64,000 nucleotides of DNA from a virus (Duplodnaviria > Caudoviricetes): positions 11,735-75,734 of IMG/VR virus record IMGVR_UViG_3300033407_000005; one strand, 5' to 3'. Position numbers and translations under genes: made by a program. Of this stretch, positions 5,695 through 28,136 are shown piece by piece. Position 1 is the first letter of the stretch; each line of letters begins with the position of its first letter. The notes below the pieces were generated by a model. It made no database searches. It saw nothing but the letters and a program-made list of their open reading frames with translations, and was not told where the DNA came from.

Positions 5695-5793
5695 CAGGCG
5701 GCCCTCCGCGCATGGCAGACCGGCTCAAAGCCAAGGGCCAGCAGCCGGTCGCGCTCGTCGGGGCTGAGGGGCGGCGGGTCGACGGGGAGGCGT

Positions 5794-6234
5794 TTACGCC
5801 GGCTCTGGGCCGCGGTTGCGAGGGCGATTGCGGCGCGGGCGACGCGGTGCAGCAGCCGGTCGTATGCCCTCAAGAGGATCGAGGAAGGCCAACTCCGCCC
5901 GCAACGCGTCGAGCTGGCGTTCCATGCGCGCGATTTCGGATTGCCGCGCCGCGACGGCGTAGCGCCGGATGGTTTCTCCTTCGTAGTATTCGACACGCCG
6001 GACCTCCCCGTACCACCAGTCCGCAACCCGCGATCGTGGCAGTCGCAGCACCCTGGCTGCGGCCGTGATCCGGTCGCTGACCTTGAGGCCGGGGGAGCGC
6101 CTCACAGTCCCTTTGACGAGCTCGCCCAAATCGGCGAGCAGAACCACCGCGTTAGCGGCGGGCAACTTTCTTTGCTCGCGGAACGAAAATCCGGGCTCGC
6201 GGAATTCCGCGAGACCGGACGGGTTCGCCGTCAA
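5794..6234 (-). CDS. CII-like phage regulator (start approximate)
   Basis: DRITAAARVLRLPRSRVADWWYGEVRRV helix-turn-helix-like segment, located downstream of cro. Confidence 0.6.
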   Translation of the reverse strand: MTANPSGLAEFREPGFSFREQRKLPAANAVVLLADLGELVKGTVRRSPGLKVSDRITAAARVLRLPRSRVADWWYGEVRRVEYYEGETIRRYAVAARQSEIARMERQLDALRAELAFLDPLEGIRPAAAPRRPRRNRPRNRGPEPA

Positions 6235-6484: not shown

Positions 6485-6697
6485 CTATGCTGCCTTGTTG
6501 GATTCGGCGGGCGCGCAGAGCAACCGGTCATCCAGCGGTATCCCACGTTCTGCACATTCTTTCGCGAGACGATAATGCAGGCGCGCGGGAAAGCGATTGA
6601 ACGATCGCCAGTTGCTGACGGCGCTGCTCCGCACCCCGAAGAGCGCCGCCACAGGACCATTGCCGCCCAACTTGTCGATGATCTCGCTCGCCGTCAT
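6485..6697 (-). CDS. cro: Cro-like antirepressor (YdaS-type HTH)
   Basis: IIDKLGGNGPVAALFGVRSSAVSNWR; divergent from the cI-like gene. Confidence 0.85.
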   Translation of the reverse strand: MTASEIIDKLGGNGPVAALFGVRSSAVSNWRSFNRFPARLHYRLAKECAERGIPLDDRLLCAPAESNKAA

Positions 6698-9013: not shown

Positions 9014-9481
9014 ATGCGCACCAAACGGCTGTCGAAAGAGCAGAAGTTACAGCTCCCCGCAGTGCTGGCCGCAATCGGCGGCGCCGCGACTATCGACGAG
9101 CTGGAAGAGGCATTTCAGGCCGGGCATCGCGCGCTCGACGATCACCCGTTCTCGACGGCTTGGAATGAACGCGGCAACGCGATGCGCGCCCGCGGTTGGG
9201 ATTTGATTGAAGCTGATCCTCAAGGCCACCTGATCCCGCGCCTCGGCGAGCGCCATAAGTTGTCAGTCGCTGGCGAGACGACGCGCGTCGGGTACGGACA
9301 TAACGCCGCCGGCGTGCGGTGGGTTTGGGCTGAAGCCGAAGCGTGGGCTATCGGGCACCTGAAATCGCATGGCGTCGCCGAAGAAACGGCCAAGACCGTC
9401 TGGGGATGGTGCTTTGAATATCCCCATCGCGCTCTAAAGGTTCTTCGCAGGCGAGTGAAAGAACCATGCTTATCCGGTTGA
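9014..9481 (+). CDS. Phage hypothetical protein; its stop codon lies inside a cassette TIR
   Basis: RBS ggaggagg; ends KEPCLSG* within CATGCTTATCCGGTTGA. Confidence 0.65.
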   Translation: MRTKRLSKEQKLQLPAVLAAIGGAATIDELEEAFQAGHRALDDHPFSTAWNERGNAMRARGWDLIEADPQGHLIPRLGERHKLSVAGETTRVGYGHNAAGVRWVWAEAEAWAIGHLKSHGVAEETAKTVWGWCFEYPHRALKVLRRRVKEPCLSG

Positions 9482-9899
9482 CACCCACACTACCTCTAGG
9501 AGTTAGGAAATGTCCGAAACCCGCGAATTTCCGACAGCCGCCATCGCCTCGCTTTCGACAGGCACCTTGCTGTGCAAGTTCAGCGACATACACGAGGCCG
9601 CTGAGTATTTGATGGGCCACCCAATCTGGACGCATCAATTCGCCGATAAGCAGCTTTTCGCTGATATGCGAGCGATGATCATCGAACAGTGCCCTGGAAT
9701 GCCCGCGAGAGACGGCCAAATCACGCCTGAGAACTGGCGCGAGAAGCTCGCCGAGTTGGTCGCGGAATTAGGCCCCACACAGACAATCCGCAAAGGGGCC
9801 GGGTTGACCGCGATGCTGCCGACTGACGGCATCCCAGAGCACGTCGAATTGCTCGTGGTCAATGTTCCTTAAGGGTGGGTAACAACCGGATGAAGCATG
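9465..9899 (+). mobile_element. TIR-bounded single-gene cassette A1 (no transposase)
   Basis: Ends catgcttatccggttgacaccc / gggtaacaaccggatgaagcatg; flanked by gaaagaac at 9457-9464 and 9900-9907. Confidence 0.8.
9510..9872 (+). CDS. Cargo hypothetical protein of cassette A1
   Basis: 120 aa, RBS ctaggag, visibly lower GC than flanks. Confidence 0.8.
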   Translation: MSETREFPTAAIASLSTGTLLCKFSDIHEAAEYLMGHPIWTHQFADKQLFADMRAMIIEQCPGMPARDGQITPENWREKLAELVAELGPTQTIRKGAGLTAMLPTDGIPEHVELLVVNVP

Positions 9900-9907
9900 G
9901 AAAGAAC

Positions 9908-10499
9908 CATGCTTATCCGGTTGACACCCAAGAAACCTTATACCCACTACATCTAGGAGCGGCAAATGAACGTCAAAAAGCTCTACGAAATCCTTCGCGA
10001 GACAACTGTCCAACTGCGCAAGGGTGAAGTTTACGAAGGGACGCCAGAGCTTGTGGAACAAGCCAAGCGTGGCGACGAATTGAAGGGCGGCGGCGTTCTT
10101 GAAGTCTACGCCATGCCTCATGTCGCCGATGCCAATCCCGACATCGAAAAGGTCGATCTCGAATTTCTCGTAATCGGCGTCAATAAGGCCATCGCTGAAA
10201 CGCGTAAGGCCGAATTGATCGAAATTCTTAAGGATTATCCTCAACCGGAGCGCCTTGCGGGCGGCCCGTCCTACATCGAAGTCGGTGCAGAGATCGGCGA
10301 TCAAGGCGCGGCCTTCCAACTTTTTGCGCTCGGGAAAGTGCTCGGGCTTTGGGACGTAATCACGCCCGCGACGATGGGATTCGCGGGCGCGGAAGCGCGC
10401 CAGATGGCAGGCAGCGGTTTTGTCATGATGACGGGCTTCAAAGTGGCGGCCTAGGGGTAGTGGGTATGGGAGCGGTTGGGTGTCAACCGGATAAGCATG
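9908..10499 (+). mobile_element. TIR-bounded single-gene cassette A2, tandem to A1
   Basis: About 50-bp imperfect TIRs; flanked by gaaagaac at 9900-9907 and 10500-10507. Confidence 0.85.
9966..10454 (+). CDS. Cargo hypothetical protein of cassette A2
   Basis: 162 aa, RBS ctaggag. Confidence 0.8.
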   Translation: MNVKKLYEILRETTVQLRKGEVYEGTPELVEQAKRGDELKGGGVLEVYAMPHVADANPDIEKVDLEFLVIGVNKAIAETRKAELIEILKDYPQPERLAGGPSYIEVGAEIGDQGAAFQLFALGKVLGLWDVITPATMGFAGAEARQMAGSGFVMMTGFKVAA

Positions 10500-10509
10500 G
10501 AAAGAACCG

Positions 10510-10824: not shown

Positions 10825-10853
10825 CATCCACGACCTGTCGCCAGGAAAGGAAG

Positions 10854-11369
10854 GGGAATTATATAGATGACTTCCTCTGCCGAAATTTACGCCATTTCGC
10901 TCTGGCAGCCGTGGGCATCCCTGATCGCGATCGGGGCCAAGCCATTCGAGACGCGCGACTGGTTCCCGCCGAAGTGGCTTATCGGGAAGCGAATAGCGAT
11001 CCATGCCGCAATCAAGGCGATGCCGCGAGACGCGGAGGATCAACACGATTTCACCGAGGCGTTCGGCGGCCGAGGGTGGCGGGCCGTCGTGCCGAAGGGC
11101 GCGATCGTATGCACGGCGATCCTCGCTGGCGCTTACCAATGCGGCCATTCTGACCGCGAGAGCGTGAACGTGGTCCGGGCGATAACAGGATCGCGGGCAC
11201 TTAACCGCATCGCGCTCGATACGTTCGGGGACTATGCGCCCGATCGTGTCGCGTGGTGGCTGACGGACATCGAGCCGCTTGATCCGCCCATCCCAGAAAA
11301 GGGGCATCAAGGTTTTTGGAAGTTGAACGGACTCCTGGCATGACGCAGGTAGTCAAGTATGTAATTCCC
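10854..11369 (+). mobile_element. IS1595-like TIR cassette B1 carrying the ASCH gene
   Basis: gggaattatatagatgacttcc / ggtagtcaagtatgtaattccc (18 of 22 match); 8-bp TSD aaaggaag at 10846-10853 and 11370-11377. Confidence 0.8.
10867..11343 (+). CDS. ASCH-domain protein
   Basis: AISLWQPWASLIAIGAKPFETRDW...IAIHAA...KGHQGFW. Confidence 0.9.
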   Translation: MTSSAEIYAISLWQPWASLIAIGAKPFETRDWFPPKWLIGKRIAIHAAIKAMPRDAEDQHDFTEAFGGRGWRAVVPKGAIVCTAILAGAYQCGHSDRESVNVVRAITGSRALNRIALDTFGDYAPDRVAWWLTDIEPLDPPIPEKGHQGFWKLNGLLA

Positions 11370-11382
11370 AAAGGAAGCACCC

Positions 11383-11685
11383 ATGACCAAAGCCGACATG
11401 ATCACATTGATCGCCGCCTACTGCGGCATTTCCTCCCGAGCGCGCGCCGGCGAGGCGCTCGATGCCATCCTCCACGAGATCGCCGGTGAATTGGTCCTTG
11501 GCAGGCGGGTGATCCTGCCGCATGTCGGCATTCTGGTCGCCACCGGGCCGATCGGCGCCCGCAAGGGGCGCAATCCGCGCACCGGCGCGGCGATCGAGAT
11601 AAAGGCCTGCCGGCGCATCCGGTTTCGCCCGACCAAGTTGCTGAAGGCGAGGCTCGGCGCAACCATCCCGACGGCGGCGGAATAG
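11383..11685 (+). CDS. HU/IHF-family DNA-binding protein
   Basis: MTKADMI...VILPHVG...ARKGRNPRTGAAIEIKA...FRPTKLLK. Confidence 0.9.
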   Translation: MTKADMITLIAAYCGISSRARAGEALDAILHEIAGELVLGRRVILPHVGILVATGPIGARKGRNPRTGAAIEIKACRRIRFRPTKLLKARLGATIPTAAE

Positions 11686-16456: not shown

Positions 16457-16479
16457 ACGAGCACCGGCATTCTAAATTT

Positions 16480-16817
16480 GGGAATTATATACATGACTTC
16501 CTCGAACTCAGGAGAAAAGCAGATGCTTGACAAGCTCGGTAACGTCATGCGCGGCGCGGAAATTGACCGCGAGGTTATAGACAGCGGTCTCGCGGTCCTC
16601 ACGCGACAGGTGCGCGAAACATGGCTTGCGACCGACTATCCAAAGGCTATGCGCAGTGATGGCGCTCAATTTAGGCACGCTTGCCTTCACGCGACCAAGG
16701 CGATCGGCAAAATCACCGCGTTGATCGATCATGCCGATCACGAACGCCTTGACGACCCAAGAAGCCCTGGCCGCGAGCCTAGGGCCATTAGGCGAGGAAG
16801 TCATGTATATAATTCCC
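16480..16817 (+). mobile_element. IS1595-like TIR cassette B2 (338 bp)
   Basis: Perfect 25-bp TIR gggaattatatacatgacttcctcg; 8-bp TSD ctaaattt at 16472-16479 and 16818-16825. Confidence 0.9.
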
Positions 16818-16846
16818 CTAAATTTAGTCCCTTGACCGCCAATTGA
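16493..16846 (+). CDS. Cargo ORF of B2, probably truncated
   Basis: Starts at the ATG in the TIR (MTSS) and runs through the right TIR. Confidence 0.5.
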   Translation: MTSSNSGEKQMLDKLGNVMRGAEIDREVIDSGLAVLTRQVRETWLATDYPKAMRSDGAQFRHACLHATKAIGKITALIDHADHERLDDPRSPGREPRAIRRGSHVYNSPKFSPLTAN

Positions 16847-27794: not shown

Positions 27795-28136
27795 CATGCT
27801 ATCCGGTTAAGACCCATGAACACGACTGCTTGTGTTTTGTAGTTTTTCTTCCAGATTTTCAACGCGCCTAAGCGCATACATTGTTGGACGCGAAACTGTT
27901 TCGATAGGTCCTGACATAAAAGCCCCTTCACAGGTTATCCCTGCGTCGTGAAGACGCTTACAGATGCAAGAGGGGCAGAGTAAACCGCCCTCGTCGCCAC
28001 TCGGAGAGATACCTCTCCATACCGAAAGGGGAATAATCAAGTCAGGGAAACCATGATCATTTCCATATGGGCGTTTGCAGTCGTGGCACGCGGCATTCAT
28101 CGATCAACTCCTAGTGCCTGTGTGTGACAACCGGAT
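27795..28136 (-). mobile_element. Degenerate family A cassette (A3) in the tail operon
   Basis: Minus strand atccggttgtcacac...ctaggag-ATG...TAA-ccggatagcatgg. Confidence 0.7.
27807..28100 (-). CDS. Cys-rich cargo protein of A3
   Basis: CHDC...LLCPSCICKRL, lower GC. Confidence 0.7.
   Translation of the reverse strand: MNAACHDCKRPYGNDHGFPDLIIPLSVWRGISPSGDEGGLLCPSCICKRLHDAGITCEGAFMSGPIETVSRPTMYALRRVENLEEKLQNTSSRVHGS

Follow-up and report, generated by a model that had tools for sequence, protein, structure and literature searches.

How did a complete ASCH gene come to lie between short inverted repeats directly upstream of an HU gene in a phage genome, and from which signals could it be expressed there? 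Insertion sequences are usually regarded as disrupters of genes and are considered rare in phages, because phage genomes tolerate little disruption. The locus was analyzed within a 64,000-nt stretch of the viral record IMGVR_UViG_3300033407_000005 (soil; whole record 75.7 kb, estimated 84% complete). This stretch is referred to as the window, and coordinates given without a locus name are positions in it. A 516-bp element at 10854–11369 carries 22-nt inverted ends, with one copy of an exact 8-bp duplication, AAAGGAAG, on either side. We consider it highly probable that this element is a non-autonomous, single-gene derivative of an IS1595 element, that is, a mobile insertion cassette, and that it arrived and is expressed in the manner proposed below. 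Sequence comparison establishes its anatomy, its family ancestry, the chimeric N-terminus of its product and the recurrent fusion of the same end to other cargoes.

Anatomy of the ASCH cassette and its IS1595 relatives

The features of the locus are as follows.

10846–10853, unstranded: left copy of the target-site duplication AAAGGAAG, read from the sequence
10854–10875, plus strand: left terminal inverted repeat GGGAATTATATAGATGACTTCC ("IRR type"), with TAG-ATG at end positions 11–16
10867–11343, plus strand: ASCH cargo gene, 158 aa, TGA stop at 11341–11343
11348–11369, minus strand: right terminal inverted repeat ("IRL type"), reverse complement GGGAATTACATACTTGACTACC
11370–11377, unstranded: right copy of the target-site duplication AAAGGAAG, which is the HU Shine-Dalgarno sequence
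11383–11685, plus strand: HU-like DNA-binding protein gene (PF00216, E 3.4e-17, residues 1–91 of 100)

The cargo fills the element almost completely. From left to right it consists of 13 nt of end, the 477-nt ORF, 4 nt and the 22-nt right end (92% coding), with the ASCH ATG at positions 14–16 of the left end and the stop codon 4 nt short of the right end. The two arms agree at 18 of 22 positions, and an inverted-repeat search returned a match of 23 nt at 83% as the best in the region. Two of the four mismatches, GA versus CT at positions 13–14, reproduce a family-wide difference between two kinds of end and do not reflect decay, because the cassette keeps one end of each kind. The left-end 22-mer is identical to the ends of IS1595 elements in loci L011, L034, L027, L158 and others, and the right end has two private changes relative to the family consensus. 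The first-pass annotation had described imperfect 22-bp repeats around the ASCH gene, an 8-bp target-site duplication and an ATG inside the repeat; the coordinates, the arm match and a chance control all agree with this description. In the control, the end 12-mer GGGAATTAYATA (at most one mismatch) was found four times in the window against 0.05 expected, and none of 100 shuffles reached four. These four matches form two inward-facing pairs, each flanked by an exact 8-bp direct repeat. The second pair bounds a further element, which shares its ends alone with the ASCH cassette and has an unrelated cargo.

16480–16817 (16472–16825 with the duplication), plus strand: sister cassette, 338 bp, with perfect 25-nt ends and an exact 8-bp duplication CTAAATTT

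In scans of other collections, this 22-nt end was located at the borders of elements in 81 further DNA stretches (32 viral, 26 genomic and 23 metagenomic); the viral and bacterial-genome scans used the exact 22-mer with two variable positions allowed, and the metagenome scan used the ATG-bearing variant alone. The bacterial genomes that carry the end belong to many phyla, including Acidobacteriota, Desulfobaccales, Dehalococcoidia, Planctomycetota, Oligoflexia, and Alpha- and Betaproteobacteria. When inward-facing ends were paired, 20 complete elements were obtained, which are 161 to 3065 bp long and each have an 8-bp duplication; two of these duplications contain one mismatch, and nearly all are exact. 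The 20 duplicated targets are 81% A+T, within flanks of 32–67% G+C. Both ends of the ASCH cassette start with GGGAATTA, in keeping with the GG that begins IS1595 terminal repeats. In addition, GGGAATTAT fits ggnnatTAT, the consensus of the ISNwi1 subgroup, which makes an ISNwi1-like placement no more than a lead.

The longer members of this end family encode a 296–333-residue protein with transposase domains. Those in L025, L029, L011 and L034 contain PF12762 (E 1e-43 to 2e-44) together with PF12760, and the L029, L025 and L011 proteins score 194–203 bits against NF033547, "IS1595 family transposase", for which the cut-off is 75. The IS1595 family makes 8-bp duplications, and these, together with the PF12762/PF12760 domain pair, define it (PMC8101967); the 8-bp duplications of ISApl4, an IS1595-family element, are likewise A/T-rich (PMC12561309). 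Since the same ends bound true IS1595 transposase genes, the ASCH element can be assigned as a transposase-less derivative of this family, which bears out the membership suggested in the first-pass annotation. The DDE_Tnp_IS1595 and zinc-ribbon transposase is absent from the ASCH element itself and present in the relatives bounded by the same 22-nt ends; considered as a non-autonomous derivative, the element thus has a transposase between the same ends elsewhere, an 8-bp duplication and the preference for A/T-rich targets seen across its family. The transposases of this lineage are at most 47% identical to any in 72,556 plasmids and at most 38% identical to any in 50,697 GenBank phage records, and the home of the lineage is apparently uncultured (pro)phage DNA.

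One alternative is that the repeats are a chance or regulatory feature, such as a hairpin, an operator, or an integron-like or homing recombination site, around a native phage gene. This would fit the lack of an empty site in the searches described below and of a transposase in the record, but it is exceedingly improbable given the excess of the end 12-mer over expectation and the presence of the same 22-mer around IS1595-transposase elements with 8-bp duplications in unrelated DNA. The 80 other viral ASCH loci that lack such ends around the gene also argue against it.

Exact empty-site scans of the viral collection gave no match for either window cassette, and scans for two sister insertions likewise gave none. 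Contigs of the probable source run contained the filled site only, on one 2210-bp contig, and none joined across the element; this check covered contigs, in which rare empty-site variants are invisible. Searches for HU relatives in the viral and metagenome collections yielded 54 and 599 pattern matches, respectively, none of which was confirmed, and a blastn search of GenBank phages with a 3.2-kb query aligned no more than 108 nt, within ASCH (Microcystis and Rhizobium phages). The blank means little, because this phage region is without relatives in the collections searched.

Assignment as an IS1595 derivative raises the question of where the transposase went. A profile search of the 75.7-kb record gave no PF12762 match and no intact transposase, and the sole transposase trace in it is a short remnant.

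46157/46163–46240, minus strand: remnant of an IS1595 transposase gene, residues ~3–28 (STFQLF...ETARTYLEG), E 2.5e-4

The remnant is 58% identical over 26 residues to the L029 protein and breaks off abruptly at the start of a GGGAATTATA end, which looks like the result of a nested or truncating event. Further evidence on transposase loss comes from relatives. The 947-bp transposase-less cassette of L006 is 93% identical over 872 bp to the 1675-bp transposase-bearing element of L029, and the two occupy different sites (AAAGTTAT versus ATCCAAAA). In the Terriglobia genome of L061, two non-coding 192-bp copies (5696–5887 and 6489–6680), identical at 190 of 192 positions, lie 800 bp apart at different A/T-rich sites. 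These pairs show for other members of the family that transposase-less forms evidently come from full ones and still move.

The ASCH element could instead have arrived as a full cargo-carrying IS whose transposase was deleted in situ; it would then be a dead relic with no history of movement as a cassette. No second copy of the ASCH cassette at another site was found in the viral, genome and metagenome scans, the right end carries two private changes, and the transposase remnant elsewhere in the phage shows that decay occurs here, all of which would fit such a loss. However, the deletion must have cleared everything from the ASCH stop to the inner edge of the 22-nt end while sparing 4 nt. Moreover, the family includes transposase-less sisters at other sites (L006 versus L029) or in multiple copies (L061), and the sister cassette in the window retains perfect 25-nt ends, so that deletion in situ appears unlikely. 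The preferred reading, a mobile insertion cassette, matches what the element contains, namely IS ends and a target duplication around a non-transposition gene, with no transposase. By analogy with its relatives, we infer that the ASCH cassette would move when the parent transposase acts on it in trans.

The start codon in the end repeat

The cargo protein matches phrog_3193 (E 2.6e-30) and has 452 homologues, some of which contain PF04266 or bear the name "activating signal cointegrator 1" (ASC-1). Its own Pfam ASCH score is sub-threshold (14.1 bits versus a cut-off of 21.2); PF04266 is matched by 28 of 40 aligned homologues, and the alignment profile matches the ASCH structures of ASC-1 and EOLA1 (E 8e-8, roughly 1e-7). 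The assignment as a true ASCH protein is therefore confirmed only via the homologues and the profile.

The N-terminus of this protein differs from that of its relatives. Codons 1–3 (M-T-S) coincide with end positions 14–22, where family-wide conservation stops, and native ASCH sequence runs from about residue 6 (EIYAISLWQPW...). The window protein begins MTSSAEIYAISLWQPW, whereas the closest homologues, at 86, 79 and 76% identity, begin MNEIYAISLWQPW, MKEIYAISLWQPW and MMIEMYAISLHQPW, respectively; the nearest N-termini (79–86% identity) read MNEIYAISL or MKEIYAISL. An in-frame TAG stands directly 5' of the ASCH ATG, no alternative start codon is present upstream of the conserved ASCH core, and the C-terminus is full length relative to the homologues. 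Because the native N-termini differ, it follows at the sequence level that the end repeat supplies the ASCH start codon. The gene is evidently a capture, its first two codons having been replaced by the ATG-ACT-TCC of the end, and we infer that this ATG is used in vivo. A survey of ASCH genes for an MTS start and terminal repeats, which had been put forward as a check, supports the fusion: none of the 120 homologues listed (452 in all) has an MTS N-terminus, and 80 ASCH loci in other viral contigs lack such ends around the gene. A single TIR-like 22-mer, ~180 bp downstream of ASCH, is present in L125 and L142 only.

The same end serves other genes. In autonomous copies with assignable ends, the ATG variant, (G/C)ATGAC, is confined to the end farther from the transposase start, and the transposase-proximal end reads CTTGAC or a close variant (CTTTAC, CTTAAC). 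Two different N6_N4 methylases begin at the end's ATG, one in L047/L158 (E 1.4e-18) and one in L166 (E 2.2e-18), as does the HTH_31 cargo of L027, the domain of which starts at residue 7; in L163, the same ATG begins a fragment in which a C5-methylase-like motif was recognized by eye. More generally, ORFs in frame with ATG-type ends have a median length of 98 codons (20 of 35 reach 90), compared with 14 codons for TTG-type ends (2 of 41 reach 90). The difference is significant across all distinct ends (Mann-Whitney p = 4e-6), although this value is generous because some ends are related copies.

These fusions bear on a further alternative, that the end's ATG is not a working start, ASCH being untranslated or a pseudogene and the fusion an accident without function. 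The sub-threshold Pfam score of the protein and the long Shine-Dalgarno spacing described below could be taken in its favor. Yet the ORF is full length relative to the homologues and retains all 19 invariant residues (by construction of alignment A1), and it has no alternative start. Independent cargoes with recognizable domains are fused at the same ATG, and ATG-type ends are strongly tied to long in-frame ORFs, which together make a non-working start very unlikely and favor translation of ASCH from the end.

The sister cassette may be read differently. Its ORF starts from the end's ATG at 16493 or from an internal ATG at 16523, runs out past the right end and stops 29 nt beyond, at 16846. 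The internal site AGGAG (16510–16514) gives a predicted duplex of −7.4 kcal/mol with a spacing of 7, compared with −4.2 kcal/mol for the end alone; with such a strong site before the second ATG, this cargo appears to bring its own signal. At L027:5588–6089, a 502-bp cassette, the HTH ORF crosses the far end and extends into the flank for another 153 nt, where it is possibly fused or coupled to the gene downstream.

Methyltransferases recur among the cargoes of the lineage.

L006:5868–6509: DNA methyltransferase, phrog_757, E 1e-65
L029:4331–4972: methyltransferase
L047:5002–5742: methyltransferase
L166:73–780: methyltransferase
L163, near 351: methyltransferase
L025:4130–4642: weak methyltransferase-like match

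At least three unrelated kinds of DNA methyltransferase are represented in addition to the weak L025 match, which suggests traffic in anti-restriction genes. In L036 (2991–4365; also L149 and L161), the same ends surround a 389-residue TnpB-like gene (PF01385, PF07282, PF12323); this element is without an IS1595 transposase, and no matching 8-bp duplication was seen at that copy. Pfam and PHROGs searches gave no match for the cargoes of L051, L053, L054, L060 or the sister cassette.

In several autonomous copies, the distal-end ATG opens an antisense ORF of 550–612 codons, which spans the whole element and passes through the passenger and transposase genes in codon register with them.

L011:9067–10719, minus strand: long antisense ORF
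L034:192–1919, plus strand: long antisense ORF
L153 from 670: long antisense ORF
L164 from 69: long antisense ORF
L165 from 264: long antisense ORF

Eight transposase genes (58–89% mutual identity) contain no TTA, CTA or TCA codons at all, against an expectation from their own third-position composition of 3.2–6.7 per gene and 38.5 over the eight. Nine sister transposase genes have 4–7 of these codons each, and the flanking genes have 2.9–8.4 per 305 codons. The missing codons look like the result of selection for an open antisense frame, which may be the reason that the end carries a start codon. The antisense ORF could instead encode a real protein; the long products have no Pfam or PHROGs match, and the literature searched describes no antisense ORF over an IS1595 transposase. 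Whether the distal-end start codon is a family-wide device that keeps the elements translated from end to end is a tentative idea, and on balance we doubt it. If true, such translation would let the elements sit in tightly packed phage operons without polar effects. A general rule that the through-ORF of autonomous copies is co-oriented with its neighbors was considered and discarded, since it holds in L155 and L153 and fails in L011, L050 and L054.

Ribosome-binding sites, target choice and polarity

The HU start at 11383 lies 5 nt past the right AAAGGAAG copy, which forms a predicted anti-Shine-Dalgarno duplex of −5.6 kcal/mol at a spacing of 5–6 nt from the HU ATG. The proposal in the first-pass annotation that the duplicated sequence is the HU ribosome-binding site thus holds. 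On the left side, the AAAGGAAG copy and the first G's of the end together give a Shine-Dalgarno-like AGGAAGGGG upstream of the ASCH ATG, with a predicted duplex of −8.3 kcal/mol and a spacing of 11 nt, which is long. It is plausible that the left copy serves ASCH in this way. The Shine-Dalgarno likeness of the target is incidental: across the family, the targets are 81% A+T and mostly not Shine-Dalgarno-like, and HU keeps its Shine-Dalgarno sequence at the native distance because any target duplication leaves it so. The choice of target is better explained by a transposase preference for A/T-rich 8-mers, which in a phage of ~65% G+C would cluster around ribosome-binding sites.

The ASCH cargo is co-oriented with its neighbors, and the same is true of the sister cassette, L027, L053 and L160, the remaining single-gene cassettes in which orientation could be resolved. 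A signal scan of the element and its immediate surroundings revealed neither promoter-like nor terminator-like sites. With 40 nt between the stop codon of ASCH and the start of HU, the insertion would be expected to have almost no polar effect. Non-polar insertion of the cassette is a reasonable reading of this arrangement, with which the scarcity of non-coding DNA in the element also agrees.

The window also contains single-gene cassettes with a different type of end, CATGCT(T)ATCCGGTT..., at 9457–10507 and 27795–28136. Two of these cassettes form a head-to-tail stack within the duplication GAAAGAAC and stand 2 nt upstream of the next gene's ATG, a position that is consistent with A/T-rich targets around ribosome-binding sites.

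Proposed origin of the cassette and comparison with known elements

A route is proposed in which a full IS1595 element would have lost its transposase gene and kept both ends recognized by the DDE transposase of the family. The cargo is an ASCH gene, apparently captured from another phage or prophage and complete except for its first two codons; it is fused in frame to the ATG of the end, which gives the N-terminus M-T-S-S-A. The transposase for cut-and-paste insertion would have come in trans from a full copy, carried either by the host or by a co-resident phage. The target would have been an A/purine-rich 8-mer, the ribosome-binding site of the phage HU gene, and repair of the staggered cut would have duplicated it, leaving HU with a Shine-Dalgarno sequence at its native distance. 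Since the end supplies the ATG, the element can do without its own 5' leader. Translation of ASCH would probably start from the composite Shine-Dalgarno sequence formed by the left duplication copy and the GGG of the end, and transcription would come by read-through from the surrounding co-oriented early operon.

Several known systems share parts of this design. In some IS elements, the start or stop codon of the transposase lies within the end repeat. The family of the ASCH cassette likewise embeds a coding signal in a transposase-binding end, but here the embedded start serves passengers at the transposase-distal end and not the transposase. Passenger-carrying "transporter IS" are known in the IS1595 family (Siguier, Gagnevin and Chandler 2009, as cited in PMC8496243 and PMC12561309). 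The present lineage resembles these in its GG ends, its A/T-rich 8-bp duplications, the zinc ribbon and DDE_Tnp_IS1595 of its autonomous members and the location of passengers inside the ends; it differs in that the ASCH copy is without a transposase and the passenger start codon falls within the conserved end. Mobile insertion cassettes have been described for qnrS2 on Aeromonas plasmids (PMC5444012) and in the Bacillus cereus group (PMC6199540, PMC6542083). As in those cassettes, IS-type ends and a target duplication surround a non-transposition gene, the transposase is missing and mobilization in trans is presumed; unlike them, the ASCH cassette has an IS1595 parent, sits in a phage operon, has its cargo fused to the end and contains essentially no non-coding DNA. 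It is also small and non-autonomous with inverted ends and a target duplication, as are MITEs. However, MITEs are non-coding, whereas 477 of the 516 bp of the ASCH cassette are an intact ORF, which places it outside that class. MITE-sized members of the same end family, of 161–192 bp, occur in L056 and L061.

The literature searched contains no description of a passenger start codon in the transposase-distal end that is reused by unrelated cargoes, and no report of such a near-absence of non-coding DNA, of these phage cassettes or of a lineage whose home is apparently uncultured (pro)phage DNA. What is known is thus the IS1595 mobile insertion cassette; what appears to be new, in that we did not find it described, is the passenger start codon within the conserved end.

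In this lineage, a transposon can evidently be reduced to two ends plus one gene, with the start codon borrowed from its own end. The lineage lands in the A-rich ribosome-binding regions of GC-rich phage operons, where the duplication would spare the downstream translation signals. Its recognized cargoes, namely DNA methyltransferases, ASCH, an HTH regulator and the TnpB nuclease, are accessory genes of the kind that decide phage–host outcomes, and the lineage is therefore a plausible vehicle for single-gene exchange between phages and across bacterial phyla. Such cassettes would explain unexpected "MTS..." N-termini and merit annotation as mobile units, and their ends suggest a compact design for the non-polar delivery of genes.
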